Of a stretch of 64,000 bases of DNA, positions 619 to 62,932 are shown one piece after another. The notes under the pieces were generated by a model. That model worked only from the letters and a program-made list of their open reading frames with translations. It did not search any database and was not told the origin of the DNA. A program made the position numbers and the translations under genes. The stretch comes from a candidate division TM6 bacterium GW2011_GWF2_28_16 (GTDB lineage Bacteria; Patescibacteriota; Microgenomatia; UBA1400; PJMF01): positions 195,407 to 259,406 of the forward strand of contig CP011212.1 of NCBI GenBank assembly GCA_001029715.1, in the 5' to 3' direction. Each line of letters begins with the position of its first letter. The stretch's first letter is position 1.

Positions 619-710
619 GCATATTTCTATTAATTCTTACATTTTCATGATTTTAATGGATTGATTTTTCTTTTCATATAGACTATCATCTATATGAAAG
701 GTTTTTATAT

Positions 711-1343: not shown

Positions 1344-1377
1344 ACTTTACTCTAAAATTGTTTTAGTATGTTTGCTT

Positions 1378-1962
1378 ATGCTCGAAGTTATTCTTGACGT
1401 TGAAACAAAACAGATTTTTGACGATGTAGGTGGTTATTTTCCAGAGAAATTAGGTATTTCCTTTGTTGGAGTCTGCGTGCGCAGCGACCGCTCCCAAAAA
1501 GGTGAGATGATGTCTTTCTTTGAAAAAGATCTGCCAAAGCTTTTCCCTCTTTTAGAGCGAGCTGATGTAGTGGTTGGTTTTAATATTGATGGTTTTGATA
1601 TGCCAACTTTTATTCCTTACTATCGTGCAGATATCAGTCGTATTCCTACTTTGGATGTCATGGATCGTATCAAAAAAAGTGTTGGGCATCGCATTGGTCT
1701 TGACGCTGTAGCCAAAGAAACTTTAGGATCAGGTAAATCTGGAGATGGTCTAGATGCAATTCGTTATTATAAATCTGGCAACTTTGAAGCTTTGGAAAAA
1801 TATTGTTTACGTGATGTAGAGGTTACCAGGGATGTTTATGATTATGGTTTGAAAAACGGCAGAATCAAATTTCGCAATAAATGGAACCGTTTAATTGATG
1901 CTCCAGTAGATTTTTCTTTTGTCAGTTCTAAAGCTAGTGGAACGCAAATGAGTTTGATATGA
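1378..1962 (+). CDS. DEDD-family 3'-5' exonuclease (RNase H-like fold)
   Basis: Exo I LDVET, Exo II NIDGFD and Exo III YCLRD motifs in the expected order. ATG at 1378 is preferred over the TTG at 1372. Confidence 0.5.
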   Translation: MLEVILDVETKQIFDDVGGYFPEKLGISFVGVCVRSDRSQKGEMMSFFEKDLPKLFPLLERADVVVGFNIDGFDMPTFIPYYRADISRIPTLDVMDRIKKSVGHRIGLDAVAKETLGSGKSGDGLDAIRYYKSGNFEALEKYCLRDVEVTRDVYDYGLKNGRIKFRNKWNRLIDAPVDFSFVSSKASGTQMSLI

Positions 1963-1972
1963 TTCGTTTCAG

Positions 1973-2521
1973 ATGACTCCAAAATTCTGTTTTACAGCCT
2001 CAGTATTTCTCATTCACAATGACAAAGTTCTCCTGATTAAGCACAAAAAACTAAATATGTGGCTTGGTCCAGGAGGGCATATCGATGAGAACGAATTGCC
2101 TCATTTGGCAGCTGAAAGAGAATTTTTTGAAGAAACTGGTCTAAGAGTTAAAGTTTACAGTGCCTATAAAAAGCTGAGTATTTCGTCTAAAGACGATCGT
2201 TTTTTTCATCCCTTACCTTTTGCGATTAATGAACATTGGGTTTGCAAAGAAAACTATGAAAGACGCTTGCTTGCCGAGAAGAATAAAGCAGAATTTGCCC
2301 CAGAAACCAAATGGCCTAAAGGCTGTGAAAAACATTTGAATTTTACTTATTTGGCTAAACTCATTGGTCCTTTAGAAATTAATCCAGCAGAAGGTGAATC
2401 ACAAGAAATTACTTGGTTCTCGCTAGAAGATCTAAAAGGAAAAGATAAAAAAGGATTAATGGAAGATATTTTTAAAGAGTTGTTGAAAGCTTTTGAACTT
2501 GCTAAGTCGAGTCATTCTTGA
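1973..2521 (+). CDS. NUDIX hydrolase
   Basis: Nudix box GPGGHIDENELPHLAAEREFFEETGL. Confidence 0.75.
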   Translation: MTPKFCFTASVFLIHNDKVLLIKHKKLNMWLGPGGHIDENELPHLAAEREFFEETGLRVKVYSAYKKLSISSKDDRFFHPLPFAINEHWVCKENYERRLLAEKNKAEFAPETKWPKGCEKHLNFTYLAKLIGPLEINPAEGESQEITWFSLEDLKGKDKKGLMEDIFKELLKAFELAKSSHS

Positions 2522-2538
2522 GAGAATAACCACATATT

Positions 2539-3036
2539 ATGTCTCCTAAACATCAGCTAACAGAAAATGTTAAATTACTGCAAAAAGCAGCCATTATTCG
2601 TCAAGGTGAATCTTTTGCAGAAGTATTACTCTTAAAACGAAATATAAGTTCTCTATCCAGACCAAATTGTTGGGATTTACCAGGTGGCAATAGTGAATGG
2701 CCAGCAGTAGATCAAAACTCGGCAGCCAATCTTCATTTAAACGACATTACTAGAGAAATTACTGAAGAGACGGGTTTAGTTGTTGATGAAAAATCTTTTT
2801 CTTTAGACAAGTTGAGTCATTTATCCACCTATTTTGATGTTGATAAACAAGTTTACACAATGATTTGTGGCTGGTTTGTTGATTTTTCAGCAACTGATCA
2901 AAAAGAAATTCAGACATCTGATGAGCATCAAGAATATACTTGGGTGTCTGAAGCTGAATTGAGCAATTATGATTTTGGTGGAGAGAGCGGTGCTTTTCTT
3001 TTAGATACTATCAGAAAATCTTTTGCTAAACTCTAA
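2539..3036 (+). CDS. NUDIX hydrolase (divergent)
   Basis: Degenerate Nudix box LPGGNSE...REITEETGL. Confidence 0.55.
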   Translation: MSPKHQLTENVKLLQKAAIIRQGESFAEVLLLKRNISSLSRPNCWDLPGGNSEWPAVDQNSAANLHLNDITREITEETGLVVDEKSFSLDKLSHLSTYFDVDKQVYTMICGWFVDFSATDQKEIQTSDEHQEYTWVSEAELSNYDFGGESGAFLLDTIRKSFAKL

Positions 3037-3044
3037 AAATATCC

Positions 3045-3614
3045 ATGAAATTTTTCGTTGCTTCCAAAAATCCAGTCAAAATTAATGCAGTCATAAGTGC
3101 CATAAAAAAAGAATTTCCCAATTCCTCAGTCGAAGGCTTTGAAGTAGATAGTGCTGTTTCAGCTCAGCCGATGAGTGATGAAGAAACCAGACAAGGAGCG
3201 CTTAATCGTGCTAAAAACCTTCGAGTTTTGCTTATAAAACAAGAAGTAATTGAGCCAAAAGAAGAAGTTTTATGTATCGGTTTAGAGGGCGGTGTTTTTC
3301 ATCCTGATTTTGCTAAGAGTAAAAATGAACTTTGGTCAACAGTTTGGGCGGTTGCTATAGACCATAATAATCAAAGCTATTTTAGCAATGGCGCTCGTTT
3401 TCCTTCACCACAATTTTTATCAGATATGATCTTGGCTGGAGAAGAGATGGGTCCAGCTTTAGGTCGTCATTTGCAAGATCCAGATTTGCGGAAAAAATCA
3501 GGTATGATCGGCTTTATTACCAACCATTTTACCAATCGGACTGATGAATACGAAAGTGTTGTGAAAATTGCAATTGGCCTCTGGTATGGTCGAGACTGCG
3601 TCTTGACAAAGTAG
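3045..3614 (+). CDS. YjjX-like inosine/xanthosine triphosphatase (non-canonical purine NTP phosphatase)
   Basis: N-terminus MKFFVASKNPVKINAV and SDEETRQGALNRA resemble the YjjX family. Confidence 0.6.
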   Translation: MKFFVASKNPVKINAVISAIKKEFPNSSVEGFEVDSAVSAQPMSDEETRQGALNRAKNLRVLLIKQEVIEPKEEVLCIGLEGGVFHPDFAKSKNELWSTVWAVAIDHNNQSYFSNGARFPSPQFLSDMILAGEEMGPALGRHLQDPDLRKKSGMIGFITNHFTNRTDEYESVVKIAIGLWYGRDCVLTK

Positions 3615-3650
3615 TTTTTTCTCGGCAGAATGGGATCATAGTAATACTTA

Positions 3651-4172
3651 TTGCAAGGAAATATGTCAAAAAAACTGCAAAATTTTCTCCCTTATATTTT
3701 TCCACTAATTGCCATCATTTTGGTAGTAGTGATGTTTGCTCGCTGGTACAAAGGCAAAACTGCCGAAGCTCCAGTTAGTTTATTGGATTCACAATTAGAG
3801 GTTGAGAGTTTGCCAGTTGATGTGCAAGATAGCATTATCAAAGGAGCTACAGATTACTCAATGATAGATATGCAAGGTTCAAATTTAGCTACTGGTGAAC
3901 TACGCTATCAGATTAAAGATGACAAACTTAGTTTTACTGTAACAGCTAATTTGCAAGAATCAAAAGAAGATTATGCCGTTTGGTTGGTTGATTCTGCTAG
4001 CGATGCTAAGAAACGTGTTTTTAACCTCAAATATTCTAAAGCAGGTTATATTGGAAGTGCGATGGTTCCGGCTAATATTTTATCTGTTGAAGTAGTGGTT
4101 GCTAAAGCCTCTGATCTAATGTTAGAAGATGTGCTTTTACATGCAGAACTCTTAGCTCCAGAGGCAAATTAG
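3651..4172 (+). CDS. hypothetical N-terminally membrane-anchored protein
   Basis: Single N-terminal TM helix (IFPLIAIILVVVMF) followed by a soluble domain. No recognisable family. Confidence 0.45.
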   Translation: MQGNMSKKLQNFLPYIFPLIAIILVVVMFARWYKGKTAEAPVSLLDSQLEVESLPVDVQDSIIKGATDYSMIDMQGSNLATGELRYQIKDDKLSFTVTANLQESKEDYAVWLVDSASDAKKRVFNLKYSKAGYIGSAMVPANILSVEVVVAKASDLMLEDVLLHAELLAPEAN

Positions 4173-4247
4173 TTCTTTGTTTGATATATTTAGATGTTCT
4201 TTGACATAAAAAAATGAAAACTGCTTCTTGATTAGCTAGTCAAGTGT

Positions 4248-4292
4248 GCTAATCTTAGTAGCAGACTTACATTAATAAATAAGTCTATATTA
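4248..4292. promoter_or_regulatory. short palindrome AGACTTA-N10-TAAGTCT upstream of small gene
   Basis: 7-bp half-sites identical to the terminal stem base of the 6409-6570 element. A further TCTCTGT/ACAGAGA inverted repeat follows. Confidence 0.4.
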
Positions 4293-4334
4293 ATAAAAAT
4301 TATTCTCTGTGTTACAGAGAAAGAAGGGTACTAC

Positions 4335-4538
4335 ATGGCAAACGCCTACAGTTACACAAACTCAAAAGGTCAAACCTACTACCTCCACACCAGAGATGTC
4401 ACCTTGAAGAATGGTAGAGTTCAAACCATCTACTTTTTCGCACGTGATATTCGTGAGGGTTCCTTAAGTGCAGTTCCAGCCGCCTATCAGGTGATTGAAA
4501 CCAGCAGAACAGGAATGCCAGTTTTGAAGAAGAAATAA
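4335..4538 (+). CDS. small hypothetical protein (67 aa)
   Basis: SD-like GAAGGG sits 8 nt upstream and a strong terminator follows immediately. Unknown family. Confidence 0.5.
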   Translation: MANAYSYTNSKGQTYYLHTRDVTLKNGRVQTIYFFARDIREGSLSAVPAAYQVIETSRTGMPVLKKK

Positions 4539-4565
4539 ACTCTTCTTCACTATTTGTGAAAAGAT

Positions 4566-4591
4566 AGCCCCGCTTTCAAGCGGGGCTTTTT
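4566..4591 (+). terminator. rho-independent terminator
   Basis: AGCCCCGCTT-TCAA-GCGGGGCT hairpin followed by a T-run. Confidence 0.75.
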
Positions 4592-4608
4592 ATTGATATA
4601 TTAACTTT

Positions 4609-5064
4609 ATGAAAATCTATCTAGGTAGTGACCACGGTGGCTTTAAATTAAAAGAAGAATTTAAAAATTATCTTTTAAATAAACATCCAGAATTTGAATT
4701 AGAAGATTGTGGAGCTTTTACTTATGAAGCCGAAGACGATTACCCGAAATTTGCTTTTGAAGTAGCTTTGAAAACTGCTACTAATCAAGAATTGGGTGTT
4801 TTACTTTGCCGCTCTGGTTCGGGAGTGGTAATTGCAGCCAACAAAGTTAAAGGTATCAGAGCAGTTGAGCTTTATGATGATAGAATTGCCGCTCACAGTA
4901 AGAGTCATAATCAAGCAAACGTGATTGCTTTTAGTGGAGATTATTTATCTTTAGAAAAGATGATTGAACTATTTGAGATCTTTCTAAAAACTGGAGTGGA
5001 TAAGAGTGAACGACACCAAAGACGAATTGCTCAAATTACAAATTACGAAAATACGAATAATTAG
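4609..5064 (+). CDS. rpiB: ribose-5-phosphate isomerase B
   Basis: RpiB/LacAB motifs MKIYLGSDHGGFKLKE and GVLLCRSGSGVVIAANK. Confidence 0.85.
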   Translation: MKIYLGSDHGGFKLKEEFKNYLLNKHPEFELEDCGAFTYEAEDDYPKFAFEVALKTATNQELGVLLCRSGSGVVIAANKVKGIRAVELYDDRIAAHSKSHNQANVIAFSGDYLSLEKMIELFEIFLKTGVDKSERHQRRIAQITNYENTNN

Positions 5065-5089
5065 ATTAAAGATTTAAGGAAAACGAGAA

Positions 5090-5755
5090 ATGAACTTAGA
5101 CGTAAGCGCCAATGTTTTAACTAGTAATTTAGAGTTAGCCAAAAAACAAATCGAGTTAGCTAAAAATGCCAACTTAGAAGCCATTCAAATAGATATTGTC
5201 GATGGCATTTTTGCCGATATGCATACTTTCACTCCACAAGATTTGATTGATATAGATTTTGGCGATTTACAGATTGATTTTCATTTGATGACCGAAGAGC
5301 CGATGGATTATGTTTGGGAAATGGAAGAACATTGCCGTCATCTGCCAATTAGAGCAGTTTTTGGTCAGATCGAAAAAATGTCCTATCAAGAGGCTTTTTT
5401 GGAAGAGGTTAAAAAACAAGATTGGCGTGCAGGTTTAGCTTTGGATTTGTATACCCCTATTGAATCAATTGATGAAAATAGTTGGGAATGGATGGATTCA
5501 ATTCTTCTTTTAGGAGTCGAAGCTGGCGCTTCAGGTCAAAAACAGAATCTTTTCCTTTTTGAAAAAATCAGGGTTGTTAAAGAAAAAATTCAAAAAGGCG
5601 AGCCAATGCGAGTTTTTGTTGATGGCGGAGTAAATAAGGACAACATTGAAAAATTACAAATGACGGGAATCAGTGGAGTGACAGTTAATTCAGCATTTAA
5701 TAATGCTGAAGATTACAAACAGGCTGTAGAGGAATTTTTAAGTCATGTCGAATAA
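5090..5755 (+). CDS. ribulose-phosphate 3-epimerase-like TIM barrel (divergent)
   Basis: Collinear with Rpe motifs (IDIVDGIF..HT, DFHLM, FVDGGV). The first metal-ligand His is replaced by Gln. Confidence 0.55.
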   Translation: MNLDVSANVLTSNLELAKKQIELAKNANLEAIQIDIVDGIFADMHTFTPQDLIDIDFGDLQIDFHLMTEEPMDYVWEMEEHCRHLPIRAVFGQIEKMSYQEAFLEEVKKQDWRAGLALDLYTPIESIDENSWEWMDSILLLGVEAGASGQKQNLFLFEKIRVVKEKIQKGEPMRVFVDGGVNKDNIEKLQMTGISGVTVNSAFNNAEDYKQAVEEFLSHVE

Positions 5756-6362
5756 TAAAAAAATTACTATCCCAAAGTCTAATCGTTTGTGCAAAATAAA
5801 TAAAATTGCTTTTTATGGTAGCGCCGATTTAAATGAGTCAGATCATGAATATGCTGAGGCCTTTGCTGCTGCTAAACATGCAGCTAAGCGAGGAAAAGTT
5901 ATTGTTAATGGTGGTGGTCCTGGAATTATGGAGGCTTCTACCAGGGGAGCAAAAGCAGGTGGTGGTAAAACCTTAGTAGTTACTTTTTATCCAGAGGATC
6001 TGCCAGAGTTTGAAGGTAGAGCTGAGCAAAATATTGCTGACAAAGAAATTAGAACAGCTAATTACATCGAGCGCATGTTTGGTTTGATGGATAATGCTGA
6101 TTTGTTTGTTTGTTTCAAAGGTGGAACGGGCACCTTGAGTGAATGGGCCACTGCTTGGCTTTTGGCGCATCTTTATTATGGCAATCATAAACCCTTGATT
6201 CTCTATGGTGAGTTTTGGCATGAATTTATGGATGTGGTTCATAAAAATTTTATGATTGGTTATAAAGAAGCCAAAGTTTATCGTATTGTGAGTAATTTAG
6301 AAGAATTTAAGGTAGCTTTACGTATTTTTGAAGAAGAGATGACTGCTCGTCGTTTGAAATAA
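5745..6362 (+). CDS. LOG-family (TIGR00730) nucleotide 5'-monophosphate nucleosidase-like protein
   Basis: GGGPGIMEA motif and Rossmann-like layout typical of LOG/YgdH. Confidence 0.65.
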   Translation: MSNNKKITIPKSNRLCKINKIAFYGSADLNESDHEYAEAFAAAKHAAKRGKVIVNGGGPGIMEASTRGAKAGGGKTLVVTFYPEDLPEFEGRAEQNIADKEIRTANYIERMFGLMDNADLFVCFKGGTGTLSEWATAWLLAHLYYGNHKPLILYGEFWHEFMDVVHKNFMIGYKEAKVYRIVSNLEEFKVALRIFEEEMTARRLK

Positions 6363-6408
6363 TCCCAACTTTTAAGTTAAGATAGAGACATAAAGAAAGT
6401 CTGCCACT

Positions 6409-6570
6409 AGACTTACAGCAAAATAAAAAAAGGTTCCTTAACTTATCTTTTACATATTTTAGTCTTTTCTTCTTCCTCAAGTAGACTAAGCTACTATTGT
6501 CATCAGAAGAAGACTAAAATATAGTAAAAGCTAATATTAATTAACTCATTTTTTATTTTGCTGTAAGTCT
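6409..6570. repeat. 162-bp nested palindromic element with 22-bp perfect terminal inverted repeats
   Basis: AGACTTACAGCAAAATAAAAAA at 6409-6430 is the exact reverse complement of 6549-6570. The interior is itself near-palindromic. Confidence 0.7.
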
Positions 6571-6572
6571 AT

Positions 6573-7508
6573 ATGTATGATGTTATTTCAATCGGTTCAT
6601 CTTTGCTTGATATTTTTATCAAGTCTAATGATTTAGAATCTGATCGCGATGGCGATAGGCAAATTTTGACCTATGGCGAAAAATTAGAATTAACAGATTT
6701 TCACATTGTTACTGGTGGTGGAGGTAGTAACACTGCGGTTGCTTTTTCTCGCTTAGGATTAAACACAGCTGTAATTTCTGAAACGGGACGTGATGATTTT
6801 TCTGGATTGATTACTTCTGATTTTCAAAAAGAGGATGTGTCCACAAGCTTACTTATTCAAGAAAAATTAGAAAAGACTGGTGGCTCAGTTGCTTTGGTAG
6901 CAAAAAATTCAGAAAGAGTAATCATGGTGCACCGAGGGGCAGCTTCAATGTTAGATCCTTTTGACATTCCAGCTTTCTGGTTATCTAAAAGCAGATGGAT
7001 TCATCTTTCTAGTATCGGTGGTAACCCACAGACTTTAAGTAAGATTTTTAAGGTATTAAATAACAATCAAGAGACTAAAATGTCTTGGAATCCTGGTAAA
7101 AAAGAACTGCAGTTGTTAGTTGAAGAAAAATTTGCCATAGATCAGATTCCTTGCGAAATCTTTTTTGTGAATGAAGAAGAATGGGCTTTAGTGGAGCCAT
7201 TACACGAAGAAATTTTATTGAATTTTCCACAAGTAGTTATTACTAAAGGTAAAAAAGGTGGTGAGGTTCATCTTTTTGGTAAGAAAACTTTTGAATATGT
7301 GGGTGAGGCTAGTTCTTCAGTTGATAGCACTGGGGCGGGCGATGCTTTTGCCTCTGCCTATGTAGCAGCTATTTTAGATGGCAGAGATGTCCCAATGGCC
7401 ATTGCGTGGGGAGTTAAAAATGCTGGCAATGTAGTAGCTTATTTTGGAGGGAAAACTGGCTTGCTTCGTAAAACGCAAATCTTGGAGTTAACAAAGGATC
7501 AAAAATAG
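6573..7508 (+). CDS. PfkB-family carbohydrate/ribokinase-like kinase
   Basis: TGGGGSNTAVAF and the anion-hole motif TGAGDAFASAY. Confidence 0.75.
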   Translation: MYDVISIGSSLLDIFIKSNDLESDRDGDRQILTYGEKLELTDFHIVTGGGGSNTAVAFSRLGLNTAVISETGRDDFSGLITSDFQKEDVSTSLLIQEKLEKTGGSVALVAKNSERVIMVHRGAASMLDPFDIPAFWLSKSRWIHLSSIGGNPQTLSKIFKVLNNNQETKMSWNPGKKELQLLVEEKFAIDQIPCEIFFVNEEEWALVEPLHEEILLNFPQVVITKGKKGGEVHLFGKKTFEYVGEASSSVDSTGAGDAFASAYVAAILDGRDVPMAIAWGVKNAGNVVAYFGGKTGLLRKTQILELTKDQK

Positions 7509-7527
7509 TGTTTAATTAATTAGCCAT

Positions 7528-8031
7528 ATGAAAAAAGTCTTCTTTATTTTATTTTTACTTGTCTCTTTTTTGCTTTTTCCAAATAGTGCTCGTGCTATGG
7601 AATTAACCAAAATTGGAACTTTAGATATTACTGGTGATGGAATTGGTTCGACTGTCTCTGCTTATACTTATCCGTTGCGCTCTTTTAGTCTTTATGGTTT
7701 AGCTAACGCCTCCAGTTCAGTAGCTATTAAAGTTGATGATGTAACTTATAGCGCAACTGCTGATAAAGATGGTGCTTGGTCCACTTATCTTTCCAATTTA
7801 ACTTATGATGCTCATGGTGTAGCAATTAGTTCTACTGGTCAAACTAGTTTAAATTTTACTTTGACGATCAGTTCTGCTTCGGCAACGACTACTCCAACTG
7901 CTACTCCGACTAGTACGGCTACAACCACTAGTACTTTGCCTAGCGCAGGTGCCACAGAAAACACTTTTTTAATTGTCGCTCTAGCTTTATTTTCAATTGG
8001 CTTGGGTGTAGCAGTTAAATACAGAGATTAG
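7528..8031 (+). CDS. secreted surface protein with LPSAG sortase sorting signal
   Basis: Signal peptide, Thr-rich linker, LPSAG, hydrophobic stretch, then a basic tail KYRD. Confidence 0.6.
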   Translation: MKKVFFILFLLVSFLLFPNSARAMELTKIGTLDITGDGIGSTVSAYTYPLRSFSLYGLANASSSVAIKVDDVTYSATADKDGAWSTYLSNLTYDAHGVAISSTGQTSLNFTLTISSASATTTPTATPTSTATTTSTLPSAGATENTFLIVALALFSIGLGVAVKYRD

Positions 8032-8050
8032 TTTACCTTAATAGAAATTT

Positions 8051-9109
8051 ATGTCAGATTTTCGCGAACTTCTTAACCAAGAAATTGCTGCATTAGCAGC
8101 TAAAGTTGAACAGGGAGAACTTCCCGATGAGATGCGTTACCAGCTCAAAAAAGAAATGGTGGCGCTACAGCGTAGTGTTGAACTTGGCAATTATGATGAG
8201 AAATATGAAAAAGTTTCTCATTATGTCGATTGGTGTTTGCGCATTCCTTTTGGTAAAAAAACTGAAGATACTTTAGATATCCAAAAAGCCCAAGAGATTT
8301 TTAATCAACATCACTATGGTATGCAGGAGGTCAAAGATCGTTTTTTGGAATATTTAGCAGTTTTAAATTTACAAAAAAATAATCTTCAAGATGAAAAGTT
8401 TTCTGCTCCAATTTTGCTCTTAGTTGGCTTGGTTGGTACTGGAAAAACTACTTTTGCTTATTCGTTAGCTGAAGCCTTGGGTCGCAAACTAGTACGTATT
8501 CCTTTTGGTGGTATGGGTAGTTCTAAAGAATTACGCGGTAATTCACGCTTACTTTTGGGTTCAGAGCCAGGCAAAGTTTTAAAAGGAGTTTGCGAATCTG
8601 GAGTAATGAATCCAATTATTTTACTTGATGAAATTGATCGCGCTTCTGATGATGCCAATATGGATATCATGGGTGTTTTAGTGGAATTGCTTGATCCAGC
8701 CCAGAATCATGCTTTTACTGATGACTATGTTAATTATCCAATTGATCTCTCCCAAGCGATTTTCTTAGCAACAGCCAACAATACTCGTAAGATTGCGACT
8801 GCTGTAATGGATCGTATGGAAAAAATTAGCATGCCTTCTTATACTGATGAGGAAAAAATCGCAATTGCTAAGAAATATATCATGCCAAAAGTTCTTAAGG
8901 AAGTTGGTTTAAAAACTGAGCAGTTTGTTATTCGTGACGAAATGTGGATTAAGATGGTTCGTCCGCTTGGTTTTGATGCTGGTATTCGTACTTTGCAGAG
9001 AACTATTCAGGGCGCGGCGCGTAAAGCGGCGCGCATTATTGTTGAAGGTAAATATAACAAGGTTGAAATTGGTCAAGAAAATTACAAAATTTTCTTACCC
9101 TCCTACTAG
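8051..9109 (+). CDS. Lon-like AAA+ ATPase lacking N-terminal and protease domains
   Basis: Collinear with the Lon long helix and ATPase module (HYGMQEVKDRFLEYLAV, GLVGTGKTT, LLDEIDR, LDPAQNHAFTD). The ORF ends where the Lon protease domain would start. Confidence 0.7.
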   Translation: MSDFRELLNQEIAALAAKVEQGELPDEMRYQLKKEMVALQRSVELGNYDEKYEKVSHYVDWCLRIPFGKKTEDTLDIQKAQEIFNQHHYGMQEVKDRFLEYLAVLNLQKNNLQDEKFSAPILLLVGLVGTGKTTFAYSLAEALGRKLVRIPFGGMGSSKELRGNSRLLLGSEPGKVLKGVCESGVMNPIILLDEIDRASDDANMDIMGVLVELLDPAQNHAFTDDYVNYPIDLSQAIFLATANNTRKIATAVMDRMEKISMPSYTDEEKIAIAKKYIMPKVLKEVGLKTEQFVIRDEMWIKMVRPLGFDAGIRTLQRTIQGAARKAARIIVEGKYNKVEIGQENYKIFLPSY

Positions 9110-9135
9110 GCTCAATTCTTGATATAATATTTTTA

Positions 9136-9759
9136 ATGCATTTTACTGATTTAAAGACGCTCAAAGCAGATCTAGAAAAGAATTTTCAAAATTTACCCTT
9201 GGTAGAAAAAGTTGAAGACATCGTTCATGGTGAAGGTAATGAGAATGCTAGTGTGATGCTAATTGGTGAAGCTCCTGGTTATAATGAGAGCGTGCAGAGA
9301 AGACCTTTTGTTGGTCGCTCTGGGCAGTTGTTGCGTAAAGTTTTAGCCGAGAGTGGTTTACAAGAAGATCAAGTTTATATTAGCAACATTGTCAAAGTTC
9401 GCCCACCAGACAATCGTGATCCTTTACCAGCAGAAATTTTAGCTTTTAAGCCTTATCTAGATGCAGAAATTCAAATTATCAAGCCAAAACTAATTATGAC
9501 TTTGGGGCGTTTCAGTATGGCCAAGTTTTTGTCAGATGTAAAAATCTCGCAGATTCATGGACGTTTACATAAGGTAAAATGGAATGACCAGCTCTTATTT
9601 ATTTTGCCAATGTATCATCCCGCCGCCGCTTTGAGAGCGACTAGAGTAAAAGATTCATTTATCAAGGATTTTGCCAAAATAGATAAAATTGTGGATTGGG
9701 TGGAAAACACCAAAGACGAAGCCTTTTTTAGCGAAACAGTTAAAGAAGCATTATTATAA
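9136..9759 (+). CDS. uracil-DNA glycosylase family 4
   Basis: GEAPGYNE..RPFVGRSG family-4 motifs and a C-terminal HPAA-like motif. Confidence 0.8.
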   Translation: MHFTDLKTLKADLEKNFQNLPLVEKVEDIVHGEGNENASVMLIGEAPGYNESVQRRPFVGRSGQLLRKVLAESGLQEDQVYISNIVKVRPPDNRDPLPAEILAFKPYLDAEIQIIKPKLIMTLGRFSMAKFLSDVKISQIHGRLHKVKWNDQLLFILPMYHPAAALRATRVKDSFIKDFAKIDKIVDWVENTKDEAFFSETVKEALL

Positions 9760-9780
9760 AAAATTATTTAACAATAAATT

Positions 9781-9879
9781 AAAAAGAAAGGAACGAATTT
9801 ATTTTTCGATGCATTGCGCCACCCGAGTGAACGTCTTCACTCGAGAGACGCTGAGGAGAAAAATATAATTCGTGAAATT
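9781..9879 (+). promoter_or_regulatory. conserved ~100-nt leader element (copy A) upstream of rnj, with hairpin 9824-9843
   Basis: Near-identical to 34759-34862 upstream of tuf. The hairpin CGAGTGAA-CGTC-TTCACTCG covaries with copy B. Confidence 0.6.
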
Positions 9880-11541
9880 ATGTCCAAACTAAAACTTTTA
9901 CCCCTAGGGGGAATGGGTGGTGTCACCCAAAATATGTATTTATATCAATATGAAAAAGAAATTCTAATTGTCGATTGTGGCATTGGTTTTCCTGACATGT
10001 ATATGCCAGGCGTCGATACTTTGATTCCTGATATTAGTTATTTACAAGATCAGCTCGAACAGGGCGCTAAAATTGTTGGTATGATTCTTAGTCATGGCCA
10101 TGACGATCATATTGGAGCTTTACCTTATTTATTGGGTGAATTGCCAAGCTTCCCAATTTATGGTTCACCTTTGACGATTGGTTTTGCGCGCGATCGTATC
10201 TCAGAGAAGAAACTCGATCGTGACATGCAAGCTATTTCTGACGAGAGAATTACTAAAATTAGCGATTTCTTTTCATTTGAATTAATTCCAATGACTCATT
10301 CTGTACCAGATACAAGACACATTGTAATTGATACACCAGTCGGTAGAATTTATCACGGCAGTGATTTTAAACTTGATAAAGCTCCAGTTGATGGCATTCT
10401 GTCAGACATGGAAGAAATCAAAAGAGTTGCCGATCAGGGTATTTTGTTAGCCATGATTGATTGTTTGCGTGTTGAAAGAGATCAGTGGACTAAATCAGAA
10501 TCAACTATTACTCCAGTTTTCGAAGAAGAAATGGCCAATGTCAAAGGTAAGATTTTGGTTACCTTGATGAGTTCCCATATTCATCGTATTCAACAGGTAG
10601 TTAATGTTTGTGAAGCTATTGGACGCAAAGTGGTTTTTGTGGGTCGCAGTGTTGAGCAAAATATGGTTGTAGCCACTATGCTAAAGAAATTACGCATGGC
10701 TCCTGGAACTCAAGTGGATAAGAAACACATTAGCGAAGTTCCAGATAATCAGCTCTGTGTTATTATTGCTGGCAGTCAGGGTCAAGAGGGTTCATCGCTA
10801 GTGCGAGCCGTTTATGGCGAGCATCGTATTATCCAAATTTCTCCAGAGGATAAAGTGATTTTTTCAGCTGACGCTATTCCTGGCAATGAAATTAATTATT
10901 ATGCAGCTATTGATGAATTGTCTTCCAATAATGTTGATGTGGTTTATCCAACCATTAACTCAGGCATTCATAGCTCTGGTCATGCTAGTGCCATTGAGCA
11001 AAGAGAAATTGTCGAAGTTTTAAACGCTAAATACATCATGCCAATTGGTGGTGCCAATCGCCATCGCGCTCTTTTCAAAAAACTTGTGGCTCCAGTTCTC
11101 AATTACGATAATCGCCATGTTTTATTGCCTGATTCTGGTCAAGTGCTTGGTATCGACGAAAACGGTATCCAAGTAGTTGATGAAGTTTTACTCAATGCTA
11201 AAGCAGTTGATGGTTTAGGAATTGGTGATGTTGGACCAGTGGTTTTGTCAGATCGCCTCTCTCTTTCTAAGTCAGGTATTATTGTTTTGATTATTCCAAG
11301 AACCAAAGGACAATTTGACTTCAAAGAAATGAAAGTCATTTCTCGAGGCTTTGTCTTTATGAAAGAAGCTGATGAAGTCATTCAATTTATTAAGCAAAAA
11401 ACTGCCGAGATAGTGGGTGATGAAGCACAGAATATCAAAGATGACGATCTCAAGAGAAAAATTGAGCGTCGTTTGGCAAAAAAACTATATAAAGTGATTC
11501 GTAGAGAACCAATTATTGTACCGGTAATTTTGGAAATGTAG
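9880..11541 (+). CDS. rnj: ribonuclease J
   Basis: Metallo-beta-lactamase HGHDDHIGALPYL, beta-CASP and C-terminal domains. ATG at 9880 (MSKLKLLPLGG) is preferred over the upstream TTG. Confidence 0.85.
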   Translation: MSKLKLLPLGGMGGVTQNMYLYQYEKEILIVDCGIGFPDMYMPGVDTLIPDISYLQDQLEQGAKIVGMILSHGHDDHIGALPYLLGELPSFPIYGSPLTIGFARDRISEKKLDRDMQAISDERITKISDFFSFELIPMTHSVPDTRHIVIDTPVGRIYHGSDFKLDKAPVDGILSDMEEIKRVADQGILLAMIDCLRVERDQWTKSESTITPVFEEEMANVKGKILVTLMSSHIHRIQQVVNVCEAIGRKVVFVGRSVEQNMVVATMLKKLRMAPGTQVDKKHISEVPDNQLCVIIAGSQGQEGSSLVRAVYGEHRIIQISPEDKVIFSADAIPGNEINYYAAIDELSSNNVDVVYPTINSGIHSSGHASAIEQREIVEVLNAKYIMPIGGANRHRALFKKLVAPVLNYDNRHVLLPDSGQVLGIDENGIQVVDEVLLNAKAVDGLGIGDVGPVVLSDRLSLSKSGIIVLIIPRTKGQFDFKEMKVISRGFVFMKEADEVIQFIKQKTAEIVGDEAQNIKDDDLKRKIERRLAKKLYKVIRREPIIVPVILEM

Positions 11542-11644
11542 CTATCTCTTGCAAGTGGAGCTTTTTTCCTCTTAAATAGAGTTAGTACTTAATAAAGCAC
11601 TTGACGCGATAGTGTTTTGTGTTATATCCTATAACAATACAAAT

Positions 11645-13843
11645 ATGGCTAATTTTAAACGCAGCAAAAGAAAAAAACGCAAAGCAATTCGTCTTAAAAT
11701 GCGTAGCGACACTAGTTATTCAGTAGTGGCAGTTCTATTGATTTTGCTTGGTTTATTGGTCTTAATTTCATTTACCGGTCAAGGTCAATTGCTTATTTTC
11801 ATCAATGATATCCTGTCTTTAAAGTTTGGTTTATCAATGTTGTTTTTACCTTTTGTTTTGATTTCTGCAGGCTTAGTAATGCTACGTAGTAAACATGCTT
11901 GGTCAAAACCAACTATTTTACTTGGCACGATTTTACTAATGCTTGGTACCATGGGCGTTACTAAAAGTGGACAAGTAGGTTCAAGTCTTTTTGTTAATTT
12001 TGCCAGACTAATTACTGAATCTGGTTCCTATGCTTTTTTTAGCGCCATTGTTTTAATTGGTATTTTAATTTTGTCCCAATCTTCTTTATTGGAGCTGGTT
12101 GAATTACTTGGCAAATTATTTAAGAAGAGAGCCAAAGATAAAAAAGAAGCTAAAGATATTTTTGCTGATCAAGTCAGCGAAAAGGAAATCACTAAAGCCA
12201 AGGGTTTTTCTATTCCTAATTTTGGTTTTGGATTTAGTAAAGACAAAGGTCTTAAAAAAGGCTCTTCTTTTAATGAGGAAATTGAACAAGATAACAGTAG
12301 TGCTAAGGCAATTATTGAAGACGAGCTTAAAAAAGAAACCTCTTCTTCCAATCTTGATAATCAAGAAGCTCTTAACGCCTCTTCAGTGCCAATGATGTGG
12401 GATTATCCACCTTTATCCTTACTCTCACAAAAGTCTGGTGGCAAAGCCGACCGTGGAGATGTCAAAGGCAACGCAGCGATTATTGAAAACACTTTGGATT
12501 CTTTTGGTATTCAAGCCAAAGTGACTGAATATAATCCTGGTCCAGCAGTTACTCAATATGCGCTAGATATTAACAAAGGTACTCGTTTATCTAAGATTAC
12601 TGCTCTATCAACTGATTTAGCTTTAGCTTTATCTGCTCCAACTGGACAAATTCGTATCGAGGCGCCAATTCCAGGTCGTAATTTAGTTGGTGTTGAAGTG
12701 CCAAATCGTAGTGCTGAGTATGTCACTCTCAAAACCATGTTGTCATCTCCAGAGCTTAAAAAGCATAAATCTAAATTAGCCGTGGCTCTTGGCATAGATG
12801 TAGCTGGTCGTCCATCGATTGTTGATATTGCGGCGATGCCTCATTTATTAATCGCTGGTTCAACTGGTTCTGGTAAATCTGTTTGTATTAACTCTTTTAT
12901 GTGCTCAATTTTGTTTAGAGCTACGCCAGAAGAAGTTAAGTTTATTTTGGTTGATCCTAAGCGTGTCGAATTAACTGGCTACAATGACATTCCTCATTTA
13001 TTAACTCCAGTAATTGTTGAGCCAAATAAGGTTGTTTCTGCACTCAAGTGGGCCTGTCAAACTATGGACAAGCGCTACAAAATGTTGGCAGAAGTAGGTG
13101 TCAAAAATATTAATGAATATAATGAACTAGCTGGTTTGGCTTCCATGCCAAACATCGTGATTGTGATTGATGAGTTGGCTGATGTAATGCTCTTTGCGCC
13201 TTCAGAAGTTGAAGAGAGTGTGACGCGTATTGCTCAGATGGCTCGTGCCGTTGGTATCCATTTAGTTTTGGCTACTCAGCGTCCTTCTGTGGATGTCTTG
13301 ACCGGACTGATTAAAGCTAACGTACCAACTCGTATCGCTTTTAACGTGGCTTCGATGATGGACAGTCGTGTCATTTTGGATAGTCCAGGTGCAGAAAAAT
13401 TGCTTGGTCGTGGTGATATGCTTTTCCAAGCTCCAGACAAACCAAAGCCATCTCGTGTCCAGGGTACTTTTGTCAGTGTTCAAGAAACCAATAATTTGAT
13501 TAATTTCTTAAAATCCCAGGGTCAAAAACCTCATTATGAGGAAGAAATTACTACCAAGTATCAGTCTAGCAAAGTTACTGGGGGCAGTATGGGTTCTGAT
13601 GATGGTGGTGGATCAGATATTGATGATAAATGTGAGGCAGCGGCGCGGCTCTTTTTGACCGCCGATAAGGCTTCCTCCTCTTTGATTCAGCGTCGCATGT
13701 CTGTTGGCTATGCCCGCGCCGCTAGAATTCTAGATCAACTCTACGAACTCGGCATGGTTGGCCCTCCAGATGGCAGTAAGCCAAGAGAAGTCAACAACGG
13801 CAAAATTAGAGAGTTTTTGATGAGCAAAGAACAAGAAGGATAA
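11645..13843 (+). CDS. ftsK: DNA translocase FtsK/SpoIIIE
   Basis: N-terminal TM segments, Walker A GSTGSGKS, and a C-terminal gamma winged-helix (LIQRRMSVGYARAARILDQL). Confidence 0.85.
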   Translation: MANFKRSKRKKRKAIRLKMRSDTSYSVVAVLLILLGLLVLISFTGQGQLLIFINDILSLKFGLSMLFLPFVLISAGLVMLRSKHAWSKPTILLGTILLMLGTMGVTKSGQVGSSLFVNFARLITESGSYAFFSAIVLIGILILSQSSLLELVELLGKLFKKRAKDKKEAKDIFADQVSEKEITKAKGFSIPNFGFGFSKDKGLKKGSSFNEEIEQDNSSAKAIIEDELKKETSSSNLDNQEALNASSVPMMWDYPPLSLLSQKSGGKADRGDVKGNAAIIENTLDSFGIQAKVTEYNPGPAVTQYALDINKGTRLSKITALSTDLALALSAPTGQIRIEAPIPGRNLVGVEVPNRSAEYVTLKTMLSSPELKKHKSKLAVALGIDVAGRPSIVDIAAMPHLLIAGSTGSGKSVCINSFMCSILFRATPEEVKFILVDPKRVELTGYNDIPHLLTPVIVEPNKVVSALKWACQTMDKRYKMLAEVGVKNINEYNELAGLASMPNIVIVIDELADVMLFAPSEVEESVTRIAQMARAVGIHLVLATQRPSVDVLTGLIKANVPTRIAFNVASMMDSRVILDSPGAEKLLGRGDMLFQAPDKPKPSRVQGTFVSVQETNNLINFLKSQGQKPHYEEEITTKYQSSKVTGGSMGSDDGGGSDIDDKCEAAARLFLTADKASSSLIQRRMSVGYARAARILDQLYELGMVGPPDGSKPREVNNGKIREFLMSKEQEG

Positions 13844-13845
13844 AG

Positions 13846-14243
13846 TGGAGATGGCGGGTTATGAACCCGCGTCCGTATCCAAATGTTTAAATAGCTTCTA
13901 CAGATTTAGTTTGCTTTCGATTAAAGATCAATAAGTTGTACAAACAAACTTTTACTGACCTATCCGCGTTATGTCTTAGAACTTTTTGCAACGCGAGTTC
14001 AAAAAGTTAGCCAAGTGACTGAGTTTTCACTTACCTATCTGCATCACTAACACAAATAAATAAATGCCTAAATTAGCAATAAGCTAAAGCAGGAGCATTG
14101 AAACTGGCAACAAAATTGCTGACAGCAGTCTTTGCTTTTGAGATTATGTTATCGACATTTATTGTCCGGGCCTTTTTAATGTCTTTGGTCCAAAGACAAT
14201 CTGCGACTATCTAAAAGATGTTACGTCAAAGCAATACATCCCC
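13846..14243 (-). ncRNA. ssrA: tmRNA (SsrA)
   Basis: On the minus strand, the 5' GGGGATG pairs with the 3' CATCTCC to give G3:U70, and the discriminator is A. The T-arm is GCGGG-TTCATAA-CCCGC. An internal 44-codon stop-free frame ends ...PALAYC-TAA. Length is 398 nt. Confidence 0.7.
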
Positions 14244-14284
14244 TTTTTAAAGAACTAAGCTTATTATAGCAGATACTTGCTAAT

Positions 14285-14944
14285 TTATTCCATTTTTGAC
14301 CCTATTATCAATCCAAACACCTTCTTTGCGCCAGCTTTTTTTAAAGCTTGGCTAGCGGCATTGAGTGTAGCGCCGGTAGTTAAAATATCATCAAGTAAAA
14401 TAATTTTCTTTTCCTTGACAAAATTCTGGTATTTTTCTCTGACAGCGAATAGGTTTGCCATTCTCTCAAGTCTTTCTGCTTGGTTTTTAATTTGTGCTTG
14501 TGCTTGGTTATTAATTTTTTTCTCAAGTAAATTCTTAGCTGGAATGTTGCTAAGTTTAGCGAGTTCTAGAGCGATTTCTTGGCATTGGTTATAGCCGCGA
14601 AGCTTAAGTTTTCGAGGGTGAAGTGGCACAAAAGTAATTAAATCGGCTTCAGGGATCAGTAAATGTCGCCACAACATTTTAGCCAAAAAAGGCGCAACAT
14701 TTTTACTATTTTTATACTTGAGCGCTTTGACTAATTTTTGCAAAGTGAAGTTAAATCTAGCGATGATTTGTAATTGATCGAGGTAAGCTGTCTCAAAATG
14801 AGGAGTAATTTCCTCGAGTTTATTTTGTAGAAAATAGAACTCCAGGCCGTGATAACAATTTTCGCAAAGCAGGTAGCCTAGCTTTTGGCAATGCAAACAA
14901 AAACTAGGGAAAAACAATTCTAAGAGCAGATTTTTAAGTCTCAT
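14285..14944 (-). CDS. comFC: ComF-family phosphoribosyltransferase (ComFC-like)
   Basis: N-terminal CxxC..CxxC zinc finger plus C-terminal PRTase motif ILLDDILTTGATL. Confidence 0.7.
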   Translation of the reverse strand: MRLKNLLLELFFPSFCLHCQKLGYLLCENCYHGLEFYFLQNKLEEITPHFETAYLDQLQIIARFNFTLQKLVKALKYKNSKNVAPFLAKMLWRHLLIPEADLITFVPLHPRKLKLRGYNQCQEIALELAKLSNIPAKNLLEKKINNQAQAQIKNQAERLERMANLFAVREKYQNFVKEKKIILLDDILTTGATLNAASQALKKAGAKKVFGLIIGSKME

Positions 14945-15038
14945 CTAGCTTAATTATCGATGGCGAAGTTAGCAAGAAGTGCAACAGATTGTCTTTTCCT
15001 CCAGAGTTTTCTATAATACGACCTAGTTTGCTAGATAA

Positions 15039-15112
15039 GGACAATTAGCTCAGTTGGTTAGAGCGCACGATTCACATTCGTGAGGTCACAAGTTCGAGTC
15101 TTGTATTGTCCA
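15039..15112 (+). tRNA. tRNA-Val (anticodon CAC)
   Basis: Cloverleaf with acceptor GGACAAT/ATTGTCC, D-arm GCTCAGTTGGTTAGAGC, anticodon loop TTCACAT and T-arm ACAAGTTCGAGTCTTGT. No encoded CCA. Confidence 0.85.
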
Positions 15113-15154
15113 CAAGAAAGAGTATTAAGTTGAAATTTAAAAGGGAAAATTTTT

Positions 15155-15571
15155 ATGACAAAATCTGAGACCTTCATTTTAAAAGATGAAGAAGAAACAA
15201 ATTTTTCTTCAAATCCAGATATAGACGTACTTCGCCAATCTATTTATGATCATTTAATTGAATCAGGTAATATCTCTGTTTTAGAAGCTTATTTTAAGAA
15301 TCCAAAAGATATAATATTCTTTAGTCCTTTTAATAGACCAGGTAACACTTTAGTTGTGGTTGAACAGGAACCCGACCCAAAAGGTTTTATTTTGGATCCT
15401 TCAAAAAAGTTAGCGTTGAAGACTGTTGATGGGCAGACAAAAATTCTTCGTAATGTTAAAGATTTCACTGCCTTAGTGAAAAGCAATAACTCTAGATTAG
15501 AGGGGGAAAAATTTATCAATAATTCTCTAAAATCAATTTCAAACAAATTAAAAAGAATATTTAAAGGATAA
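15155..15571 (+). CDS. hypothetical protein
   Basis: 138-aa ORF with SD AAGGGAAAA upstream. No recognisable motifs. Confidence 0.4.
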   Translation: MTKSETFILKDEEETNFSSNPDIDVLRQSIYDHLIESGNISVLEAYFKNPKDIIFFSPFNRPGNTLVVVEQEPDPKGFILDPSKKLALKTVDGQTKILRNVKDFTALVKSNNSRLEGEKFINNSLKSISNKLKRIFKG

Positions 15572-15587
15572 ACTTAGAAAGGCTAAA

Positions 15588-16019
15588 ATGACATTAAAAG
15601 AACAACTTATGGAAGATATGAAAAATGCGATGAGGGCTCACGAAACTCTCAAATTAGATGTGGTGCGCATGATTCGTAGCGATGTGAAAAACTTTGAAAT
15701 TGATAATGGTGAGGCTGACGATGAAAAAGTGCAGAAGATTATCAAAAGCATGCTCAAGCAACAAAAAGATGCTTTGGTCGATTTTTTAAGAGCAGCTCGT
15801 CAAGATTTAATTGATGAGACTAATTCCAAAATTGAAATTTTTGCCAGTTATTTACCAACTGAACTTTCAGATGCAGAGCTAGAGGCAGTTGTTGCTGAAG
15901 TTTTAGCTAGTGTAGAAAATAAAGACTTTGGTCCACTCATGGGTCAAGTCATGAAAAAAGTTGGTAGTAGAGCTGATGGTGGCAGAGTAACTGCTTTTTT
16001 GAAAAAAGCCCTATCCTAA
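15588..16019 (+). CDS. yqeY: GatB/YqeY domain protein
   Basis: The YqeY-family pattern runs throughout, including the C-terminal GPLMGQVMKK..G. Confidence 0.75.
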   Translation: MTLKEQLMEDMKNAMRAHETLKLDVVRMIRSDVKNFEIDNGEADDEKVQKIIKSMLKQQKDALVDFLRAARQDLIDETNSKIEIFASYLPTELSDAELEAVVAEVLASVENKDFGPLMGQVMKKVGSRADGGRVTAFLKKALS

Positions 16020-16036
16020 AATTATCAAAATAAATT

Positions 16037-16681: not shown

Positions 16682-16710
16682 TAAAAATTTCAACTTATGT
16701 CACAATGGTC

Positions 16711-62883: not shown

Positions 62884-62905
62884 ATAAGTTTCTATTTTAA
62901 AACAG

Positions 62906-62932
62906 AAACGCCAGGTTTTCACCTGGCGTTTT
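62906..62932 (-). terminator. rho-independent terminator for the RRM protein gene
   Basis: AAAACGCCAGGT-TTTC-ACCTGGCGTTTT perfect hairpin, T-run on the minus strand. Confidence 0.8.

Follow-up and report, generated by a model that had tools for sequence, protein, structure and literature searches.

A stand-alone Lon-type AAA+ ATPase without protease or N-terminal domain, and its family in the Patescibacteria

The window analysed here is a stretch of 64,000 nucleotides of contig CP011212.1 (GenBank assembly GCA_001029715.1, positions 195,407 to 259,406 of the forward strand), from a genome labelled candidate division TM6 bacterium GW2011_GWF2_28_16, which GTDB places in the Patescibacteriota. 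An open reading frame (ORF) of 352 amino acids plus a stop, with an ATG start, lies at 8051..9109 on the + strand of the window. It is practically certain that this ORF encodes a Lon-derived AAA+ module, preceded by only the last part of the helical HI(CC) region of LonA. It belongs to an undescribed, Patescibacteria-wide family of Lon ATPases which have neither the protease domain nor the N domain and whose pore loops are remodelled. The gene is best read as an intact, expressed-type gene for a natural Lon AAA+ module, the product of which would, somewhat more probably than not, be a stand-alone, non-proteolytic, ring-forming ATPase or remodeller.

An earlier note, made from the sequence alone, had described the ORF as a stand-alone Lon-like AAA+ module devoid of substrate-binding N-terminal domain and of protease domain, and the profile searches agree with this description. 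Pfam detects only AAA (PF00004, amino acids 122-259, E 2.7e-16) and Lon_lid (PF22667, amino acids 283-335, E 2.7e-9) in the 352-residue protein. Lon_C (PF05362) and LON_substr_bdg (PF02190), the two profiles which the note had proposed to search for, have no match in it. The NCBIfam model TIGR00763 ("lon", endopeptidase La) aligns its positions 253-571, out of 795, to amino acids 11-337 of the protein (E 2.3e-93). The corresponding score (314.1 bits) is below the full-length equivalog cutoff of 608.05, because the protein holds only the middle of the model; the PRK10787 score is 243.8, for a cutoff of 891. Since the N domain, the protease domain, a score above the curated cutoff and the pore tyrosine were all looked for and are all missing, the protein is outside the Lon protease family as defined by TIGR00763 and MEROPS S16. 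Neither Pfam nor NCBIfam contains a model that is specific to a protease-less family of Lon ATPases.

The comparison with PDB sequences (phmmer) shows that the protein is collinear with Lon from B. subtilis (3m6a, E 2e-74), with residues 245-564 of Lon from M. taiwanensis, with residues 250-577 of Lon from E. coli and with human LONP1, with identities of 36-43% and E values of 1e-67 to 1e-74. These alignments and that of TIGR00763 uphold the collinear match which the note had seen, from the helical region through the AAA+ module. Because the PDB matches are collinear, the span of the protein can be given in Lon numbering: its N-terminus corresponds roughly to residues 245-250 and its C-terminus approximately to the end of the AAA+ lid (E. 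coli Lon, EcLon, ~582), that is to say to the boundary between the AAA+ module and the protease domain, where the note had placed the stop. The missing N-terminal part amounts to ~245 amino acids by the start of the alignment, and a custom hidden Markov model (HMM) of the Lon N domain finds nothing in the protein, although it does detect the positive controls. The engineered fragment of the E. coli Lon AAA+ module that has been crystallised (PDB 6n2i) consists of residues 235-584 (PMC6722904). Between the stop codon (9107-9109) and the ATG of a UDG-family gene (9136) lie 26 nt, a gap into which no protease domain could fit, whatever the frame.

Another AAA+ family, which the note had considered, was rejected. 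The next-best NCBIfam matches are to ClpV and ClpA (at most 34 bits, versus 314 for Lon), the top folds are all Lon, and profile and fold searches thus both assign the protein to Lon. An AAA+ protein involved in anti-phage defence (e.g., BrxL, IetA or DolB) was also discarded: PADLOC gives only generic AAA-level matches (at most 38 bits), and the context of the gene is a housekeeping block.

The features of the gene, all on the + strand, are the following.

8051..9109: complete coding sequence of a Lon-type AAA+ ATPase without protease or N domain (Pfam, TIGR00763 and PDB matches, AlphaFold2 model, Foldseek).
8051..8386: N-terminal helical region, amino acids 1-112, the C-terminal part of the LonA HI(CC) domain/three-helix bundle (helices of the model; aligned to Lon ~249-350).
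Within 8051..8386: Lon-like motifs of the helical region, Y58-x-x-W61...P66 and H88-Y-G-M...K95 (invariant columns).
8387..8836: nucleotide-binding (alpha/beta) domain, amino acids 113-262 (Pfam AAA; order of strands and helices in the model).
8426..8449: Walker A, G126-L-V-G-T-G-K-T133 (alignment; GPPGVGKT in Lon, with PP changed to L[V/Q] in the family).
8537..8572: pore-1 loop, G163-N-S-R-L-L-L-G-S-E-P-G174 (G-H-R-R-T-Y-[VI]-G-[AS]-[ML]-P-G in Lon; Tyr changed to aliphatic).
8615..8632: Walker B, I189-I-L-L-D193-E194 (D193 and E194 invariant).
8645..8665: pore-2 loop region, S199-D-D-A-N-M-D205 (F/W-R-G-D-P of Lon lost).
8777..8779: sensor-1, Asn243 in T-A-N (EcLon Asn473, PMC6722904).
8813..8815: arginine finger, Arg255 in D-R-M-E (EcLon Arg484).
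8837..9106: Lon-type alpha-helical lid (H) domain, amino acids 263-352 (Pfam Lon_lid at 283-335; alignments).
8987-8989: sensor-2, Arg313, in the lid domain (EcLon Arg542).

The AlphaFold2 model, calculated from an alignment of 19 sequences of the family, has a mean predicted local distance difference test (pLDDT) score of 89.4 and a predicted TM-score (pTM) of 0.82. In this model the helical region is made of five helices (2-21, 26-45, 49-64, 77-87 and 92-111), and no inserted hydrophobic segment of the LonB type is seen. The 50 best PDB matches returned by Foldseek are all AAA+ modules of LonA or LONP1 (TM 0.80-0.85), and the isolated AAA+ fragment of E. coli Lon, 6n2i, matches the model with a target-normalised TM of 0.87. 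That fragment is ADP-bound and packs as an open helical hexamer in the crystal (PMC6722904). The protein of the window is a natural equivalent of it.

Motifs were compared in an alignment of 18 short proteins and 12 full-length Lons, and then in one of ~170 short proteins and 67 full-length Lons. The ATP site is conserved: G126-T133, D193-E194, N243, R255 and R313 are invariant across 19 diverse short proteins, and they coincide with residues 356-363, 419-424, N473, R484 and R542 of EcLon. All the residues required for the binding and hydrolysis of ATP, including the arginine finger that acts in trans, are thus retained, and hydrolysis itself is predicted.

The pore loops are different. The T-Y pair of pore-1 is present in all 67 full-length Lon sequences (67/67, 100%), and its tyrosine is the conserved pore-1 residue Tyr398 of EcLon or Tyr397 of MtLon (PMC6722904). 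In the short family, the length of the loop, the flanking G and the final PG are the same as in Lon, but the core is changed. In the clade of the window it reads R-L-[L/I/V]-L-G (41 sequences out of 41). In distant clades of short proteins it is variable, e.g., GTPRYSVDGEPG, GQSRAYLDAEPG or GRSKANPDAEPG, with an aromatic residue somewhere in the loop in 64 of 130 proteins. A family-wide loss of the aromatic residue was rejected, for roughly one distant member in two has a Tyr or Phe at the canonical position or next to it. The short family also has a fixed Glu where Lon has Met before the PG of pore-1 (M172E), and the R-G-D-P motif of pore-2 is gone. Taken together, the ATPase engine and its oligomer-dependent arginine finger are kept, and it is the elements of the channel gripping the substrate and feeding it to the protease chamber that are altered or freed from constraint.

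Other changes are fixed in the short family: PP to L[V/Q] in Walker A, the tryptophan W299, and the replacement of Y-T-R-E, which precedes sensor-2 in Lon, by P-x-G-x-D. In the lid domain, W299, P305 and G307 are specific to the family, and the helical region contains an insertion of three residues with a conserved Tyr. Low-complexity tails rich in Pro, Gln and Thr are found at the N- or C-terminus of several distant members, and are absent from the protein of the window. The whole protein is acidic, like Lon (isoelectric point, pI, of 5.4-5.8); the median pI of the lid domain is 9.6 in the clade of the window, as in Lon, and 6.2 in distant members.

The same protein occurs, with an identical sequence, on at least 24 contigs from independent samples, including contig JAHIUB010000002.1 of GCA_018817305.1. 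The best 120 matches in a large protein database are 351-368 amino acids long in 120 cases out of 120 (plus one partial protein of 325 amino acids), are 68-93% identical to it, contain no Lon_C, and carry the names Pacebacteria, Woesebacteria or Patescibacteria. A search seeded with a relative of 38% identity (P0154) retrieves 120 best matches which all have 342-507 amino acids and no Lon_C, some of them named Dojkabacteria or Nomurabacteria. A scan of the GTDB species genomes shows that 242 stretches encode a relative, of which 80 loci were kept, and a metagenome scan with an alignment of distant members gives 80 further loci. The same architecture (about 325-507 amino acids) is found in 165 of the 165 related loci that were scored, in which the lengths cluster at 325-375 amino acids, and in ~250 database proteins. 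None of 250 short proteins contains Lon_C, versus 67 of 69 full-length controls. The groups of Patescibacteria in which the family occurs are the Pacebacteria, Woesebacteria, Dojkabacteria and Nomurabacteria.

The AAA+ regions of 76 sampled short proteins and 67 full-length Lons were compared by neighbour-joining, a simple distance method, with the root at the midpoint: all the short proteins fall in one clade and all the full-length Lons in the other. This split suggests that the truncation happened once, long ago, and that strong purifying selection has acted since. The ratio of non-synonymous to synonymous substitution rates (dN/dS) is 0.03-0.07 against close orthologues, an approximate value as dS is near saturation. 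Across 80 species the median identity of the protein is 68.5%, versus 42-63% for eight neighbouring genes (including RpiB, Rpe, LOG, PfkB, UDG, RNase J and FtsK), which makes the Lon-type gene the most conserved of its neighbourhood. The family is monophyletic, vertically inherited, specific to the Patescibacteria (candidate phyla radiation, CPR) and under strong purifying selection. It descends from LonA, and probably lost both the N-terminal substrate-binding domain and the Ser-Lys protease domain early in the CPR radiation.

Some contigs carry the Patescibacteria-type gene and the full syntenic block under the name of an unrelated taxon: "Vitreimonas sp." (L059, DASPLQ010000012.1, 1.41 Mb), "Limisphaerales" (L055), "Methylococcaceae" (L075) and, in many metagenome-assembled genomes among L010-L089, "uncultured Pseudomonadales". 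These names are likely placeholder labels or the result of mis-binning. In three metagenome contigs (L129, L150 and one other), the main ORF is immediately followed by a second one, which encodes the last ~100 amino acids of the Lon-type protein; these contigs may contain frameshifts, insertions or errors of sequencing.

A protease domain was also searched for outside the gene. Custom Lon_C and Lon N-domain HMMs were built from 27 full-length Lon proteins, and they detect held-out full-length Lons with E values of 1e-44 to 1e-88. With these models, no Lon_C or N domain is found in the six-frame translations of the window and 89 loci (1.58 Mb), nor in those of 80 metagenome loci (0.89 Mb), which amounts to 2.47 Mb of flanking DNA scanned for Lon_C. 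There is no Lon_C within 10 kb on either side of the gene in 165 loci from 16 lineage groups. The split partner that the note had envisaged is thus not supported in the flanks, within 10 kb of the gene. In the same loci, no peptidase family recurs among the four neighbours on either side. As for full-length Lons, none of the closest ones that can be placed by taxon is attributable to the Patescibacteria, which is absence of evidence only. Those which could be placed are of the Clostridia type (P0272, in a tig-clpP-clpX-lon context, and P0165, from Clostridiales), besides one from Trichoplax.

In the window, the genes are tightly packed on the + strand in the order RpiB, Rpe, LOG-like, PfkB, a 167-amino acid surface protein, the Lon-type AAA+ gene, UDG, RNase J and FtsK, and are followed by a transfer-messenger RNA (tmRNA) gene on the - strand. 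The flanking genes are unrelated to the Lon-type gene, as the note had stated: none of PfkB kinase, the 167-amino acid protein, UDG, RNase J and FtsK is related to proteolysis. This order is preserved in nearly all of the 80 close genomes. The four genes on either side were clustered in the 165 loci of the 16 lineage groups, representatives being checked with Pfam, and the following neighbours recur.

Directly upstream: S15-PNPase, 32 loci, 7 lineage groups.
Next downstream (+1): UDG, 88 loci, 6 lineage groups.
Downstream: RNase J, 97 loci, 5 lineage groups.
Downstream: FtsK, 73 loci, 5 lineage groups.
Further downstream: RodZ-like HTH_25 protein, 11 loci, 3 lineage groups.
Divergently upstream: GroES, 19 loci, 2 lineage groups.

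Other lineages have other neighbours: a DUF4012 protein and PilM/FtsA in L008; dCMP deaminase and AhpC in L009; ribosomal protein L25 and PilM/FtsA in L091, where GroES, GroEL and ClpB lie within 10 kb; M16 and M23 peptidases in L092. A block consisting of S15-PNPase ... Lon-type AAA+-UDG-RNase J-FtsK ... RodZ-like (HTH_25) is shared by several lineages of Patescibacteria (positions 1-16700 of the window; L008, L094-L173). We take the order in B. subtilis to be rpsO-pnpA ... rnjB-tepA-spoIIIE ... ymfM/rodZ, which would be collinear with this block and has no Lon gene in it. Because of this common order, the block looks like ancestral housekeeping synteny, which would be evidence of vertical inheritance and not a function-defining operon. 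A function deduced from an operon was set aside, as the conserved block looks ancestral and a scan for promoters and terminators gives nothing better than shuffled sequence.

Several other genes of the window deserve a mention. The 167-amino acid protein encoded just upstream (7528-8031, +) has a signal peptide and a stalk rich in Thr, Pro and Ser, and ends with LPSAG, a hydrophobic segment and KYRD, which looks like a sortase sorting signal. Pfam assigns it to no family, and its conservation does not extend beyond the closest clade (25 loci). A sortase gene (Pfam Sortase) is present at 21703-22644; it follows the gene of a 739-amino acid protein of no known function (19478-21697, +), for which there is a weak Baseplate_J-like match (E 4e-4, below cutoff). 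The same weak match is obtained for a 637-amino acid protein of a distant lineage (L091, 13459-15372), which adjoins a PilM/FtsA-like gene near the Lon-type gene. The SUF operon (55267-57263, +) contains a full-length SufB/D-type gene (469 amino acids) and then a SufBD-core protein of 195 amino acids, which corresponds only to the C-terminal half of the core; the same arrangement is found in a distant relative (L009, 12136-13981). In this very small genome there are also a protein with a GGDEF diguanylate-cyclase domain (62239-62922, -) and a cytochrome b5-like haem-binding protein (53790-54170, +).

How the protein would work can be proposed from these observations. The Lon AAA+ module would assemble into a hexamer in an ATP-dependent manner, a proposal made because the retention of an arginine finger that acts in trans is hard to explain otherwise. 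The hexamer would remodel or hold client proteins without degrading them. Its pore-1 loop would have the length of that of Lon, with a gripping residue that is aliphatic in the clade of the window and not fixed family-wide. Mutagenesis of the pore loops of HslU, FtsH and ClpX predicts that an aliphatic or variable pore residue grips more weakly than Tyr. The handling of the substrate might therefore require less force, or be more specialised, than processive unfolding, and the clients might be unstructured or specific, the protein not being a general unfoldase.

This mechanism of a remodeller or holdase, a "Lon chaperone half", is put forward tentatively. It is favoured because the helical bundle of the entry side and a hydrophobic pore-1 loop are kept, because the whole protein is acidic like Lon, because two lineages have the gene beside chaperonin genes, and because protease-independent, chaperone-like roles are established for mitochondrial Lon. 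The divergent GroES gene upstream of it in 19 loci, and GroES, GroEL and ClpB in L091, give a hint of a role in proteostasis. Among the options that the earlier note had listed (a genome-reduction product, a non-proteolytic AAA+ unfoldase, a gene with a split partner), a genome-reduction product of ancient date which acts as a non-proteolytic AAA+ ATPase fits best, but the word unfoldase, in the strict sense of Lon or ClpX, is not assured, given that the pore-1 Tyr is not conserved.

Several points weigh against a ring-forming remodeller. The invariant Tyr of pore-1 and the GDP of pore-2 are lost, which argues against processive unfolding of the Lon type. The protease domain of LonA contributes to the formation of the hexamer, and the isolated E. 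coli fragment forms an open helical hexamer (PMC6722904), which bears on the assembly of a ring in the absence of the protease domain. A role related to nucleic acids is conceivable in view of the conserved position of the gene, with PNPase on one side and RNase J on the other. A full-text search of the literature returned nothing on Lon in the CPR or on a natural protease-less Lon.

It is possible, if rather doubtful, that these cells have no Lon-type gene other than the short one, and that they have discarded Lon proteolysis and kept the ATPase or "chaperone" half, with a re-tooled pore, under very strong selection.

The protein could instead be the ATPase half of a two-component protease, which docks on a separately encoded peptidase ring (a stand-alone Lon_C/S16, ClpP or HslV). 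ClpX and HslU, which belong to the same AAA+ clade as Lon, act in this manner. Moreover, the protein ends at the start of the linker between the AAA+ module and the protease domain of Lon, where the [FY][LIV]P of the family aligns with the YLG of Lon, so that it has a free C-terminal tail. However, split genes usually stay adjacent, and the survey of 165 loci and 16 lineage groups described above revealed neither Lon_C within 10 kb nor a recurrent neighbouring peptidase. Furthermore, conservation is lost precisely at the translocating pore-1 Tyr and the pore-2 motif, without which a peptidase chamber could not be fed, and the C-termini of distant members are variable, some of them with long disordered tails. 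We consider this arrangement unlikely.

A second alternative is a motor or regulator associated with nucleic acids, in which the DNA or RNA binding of Lon would be retained and tied to PNPase, RNase J, UDG and FtsK. S15-PNPase, UDG, RNase J and FtsK do recur as neighbours across 5-7 lineage groups, the lid is basic in the clade of the window, as in Lon (median pI 9.6), and both LonA and LONP1 bind DNA via their AAA+ module. On the other hand, the block looks ancestral, since B. subtilis presumably has this gene order without a Lon gene; the lid of distant members is not basic (median pI 6.2), the neighbours differ in other lineages, and the protein as a whole is acidic (pI 5.4-5.8). A role of this kind is improbable.

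It is still more doubtful that the protein is a non-autonomous subunit, which co-assembles with another AAA+ machine (such as full-length Lon or FtsH) or caps it, as a regulatory or structural ring comparable to the D1 rings of low activity in two-ring AAA+ proteins. Degenerate pore loops together with a conserved ATP site are typical of structural or regulatory AAA+ rings, and the Candidatus Dependentiae proteins P0121 and P0122, in which two or three tandem Lon AAA+ modules precede one Lon_C, show that stacked Lon modules exist in nature. But the gene has no linked partner, no full-length Lon attributable to the Patescibacteria was found (the closest placeable ones being of the Clostridia type), and the very high conservation of the sequence suggests an autonomous, essential activity.

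Lastly, an artefact or a pseudogene, i.e., a full-length lon that has recently decayed or that only appears truncated because of an error in sequencing or assembly, has nothing in its favour beyond the unusual architecture and a negligible probability, considering that at least 24 independent contigs encode the identical protein and that both its ends are the same in 165 loci and ~250 proteins, and in view of the dN/dS of 0.03-0.07, the 26 nt between the stop and the next gene, and the lack of Lon_C remnants in any frame of the window and 169 loci. The in-frame protease domain that the earlier note thought might emerge once a sequencing error was corrected does not exist (no Lon_C, and the truncated architecture in 165 of 165 scored loci), and a frameshifted or truncated lon is ruled out by the 26-nt gap, by the negative six-frame scans for Lon_C and the Lon N domain, and by the identical boundaries in all relatives.

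Lon is treated as an obligate fusion of a motor and a protease, and the case for a protease-independent "chaperone" role of its AAA+ module rests mainly on catalytic-site mutants. A large, old and strongly constrained AAA+-only family would be a natural test case of what the Lon motor does without a degradation chamber, of the formation of a ring without the protease domain, and of the limits of pore-loop divergence. If the short gene were the only Lon-type gene, it would be a natural separation-of-function allele, from which it would follow that the Lon AAA+ module does something essential independently of the protease, and this activity might involve the syntenic machinery of RNA decay and chromosome maintenance.

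The family also matters for annotation. The short proteins are named "ATP-dependent Lon protease" by JGI and "AAA family ATPase" by NCBI, so that a Lon protease may be attributed to Patescibacteria in metabolic reconstructions although this gene cannot supply it. The absence of Lon proteolysis from this gene affects ideas on how misfolded or tmRNA-tagged proteins are degraded in reduced cells. These points concern specialists of AAA+ proteins and proteostasis and those who annotate CPR genomes, and would be of greater interest if the gene were the sole Lon-type gene of the cells.

The tmRNA gene of the window is located at 13843-14243 (-), right after ftsK and 4.7 kb downstream of the Lon-type gene (Rfam RF00023, 89.4 bits, gathering score 47); ARAGORN makes no call there. 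The only long frame after the resume region reads ...DNIISKAKTAVSNFVASFNAPALAYC*, an unusual tag end, and the assignment of the frame is tentative. This gene bears on the question of which protease clears proteins tagged in this way where "Lon" is devoid of a protease domain.

Among known systems, the tandem Lon proteins of Candidatus Dependentiae also contain AAA+ modules with no protease domain immediately after them, some of which have degenerate pore loops. P0121 (1113 amino acids) and P0122 (1075 amino acids) contain three and two tandem Lon-type AAA+ modules, respectively, with a single Lon_C and a hydrophobic N-terminus, and in one internal module the pore-1 loop is deleted. Proteins of this multi-module kind, 900-1700 amino acids long, are numerous at the top of the representative search. 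However, these modules are fused in a chain that ends in Lon_C, they belong to another phylum, and they fall outside the clade of short proteins.

ClpX and HslU, of the HCLR clade, resemble the protein of the window as stand-alone single AAA+ modules of similar size, for which a hexameric ring with an axial pore is predicted. Their aromatic GYVG pore loop, their elements for docking to a peptidase and their usual adjacency to clpP or hslV are not seen here, and sequence and fold place the protein in Lon. Protease-dead derivatives of FtsH, such as the motor formed by FtsHi and Ycf2 in plants, are a case in which a lineage of AAA+ proteases has been repurposed as a non-proteolytic ATPase, with a degenerate protease domain that is kept in FtsHi. 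In contrast, the protease domain is wholly absent here, and the two cases differ in AAA+ family, organism and membrane context.

Compared with LonA (E. coli, B. subtilis, M. taiwanensis, human LONP1), the protein covers the C-terminal portion of the HI(CC) domain together with the nucleotide-binding (NB) and H domains, and it shares the Walker A and B motifs, sensor-1, the arginine finger, sensor-2 and the Lon-type lid. It differs in that it stands alone naturally, without the beta-rich N domain, the long coiled coil and the Ser-Lys protease domain, and in that the invariant T-Y of pore-1 and G-D-P of pore-2 are not conserved in the short family. The protease domain of LonB and LonC is also absent here, as is, in the model, the transmembrane insertion of LonB, whereas the ATPase motifs are intact.

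LonC from M. taiwanensis is a Lon-like protease without ATP-powered unfolding activity (PMC3391209). Like the short family, it is a Lon derivative that has given up one of the two catalytic activities, but as a mirror image: in LonC it is the ATPase module that is non-functional and the protease that is retained, whereas the short family keeps the ATPase motifs and has no protease.

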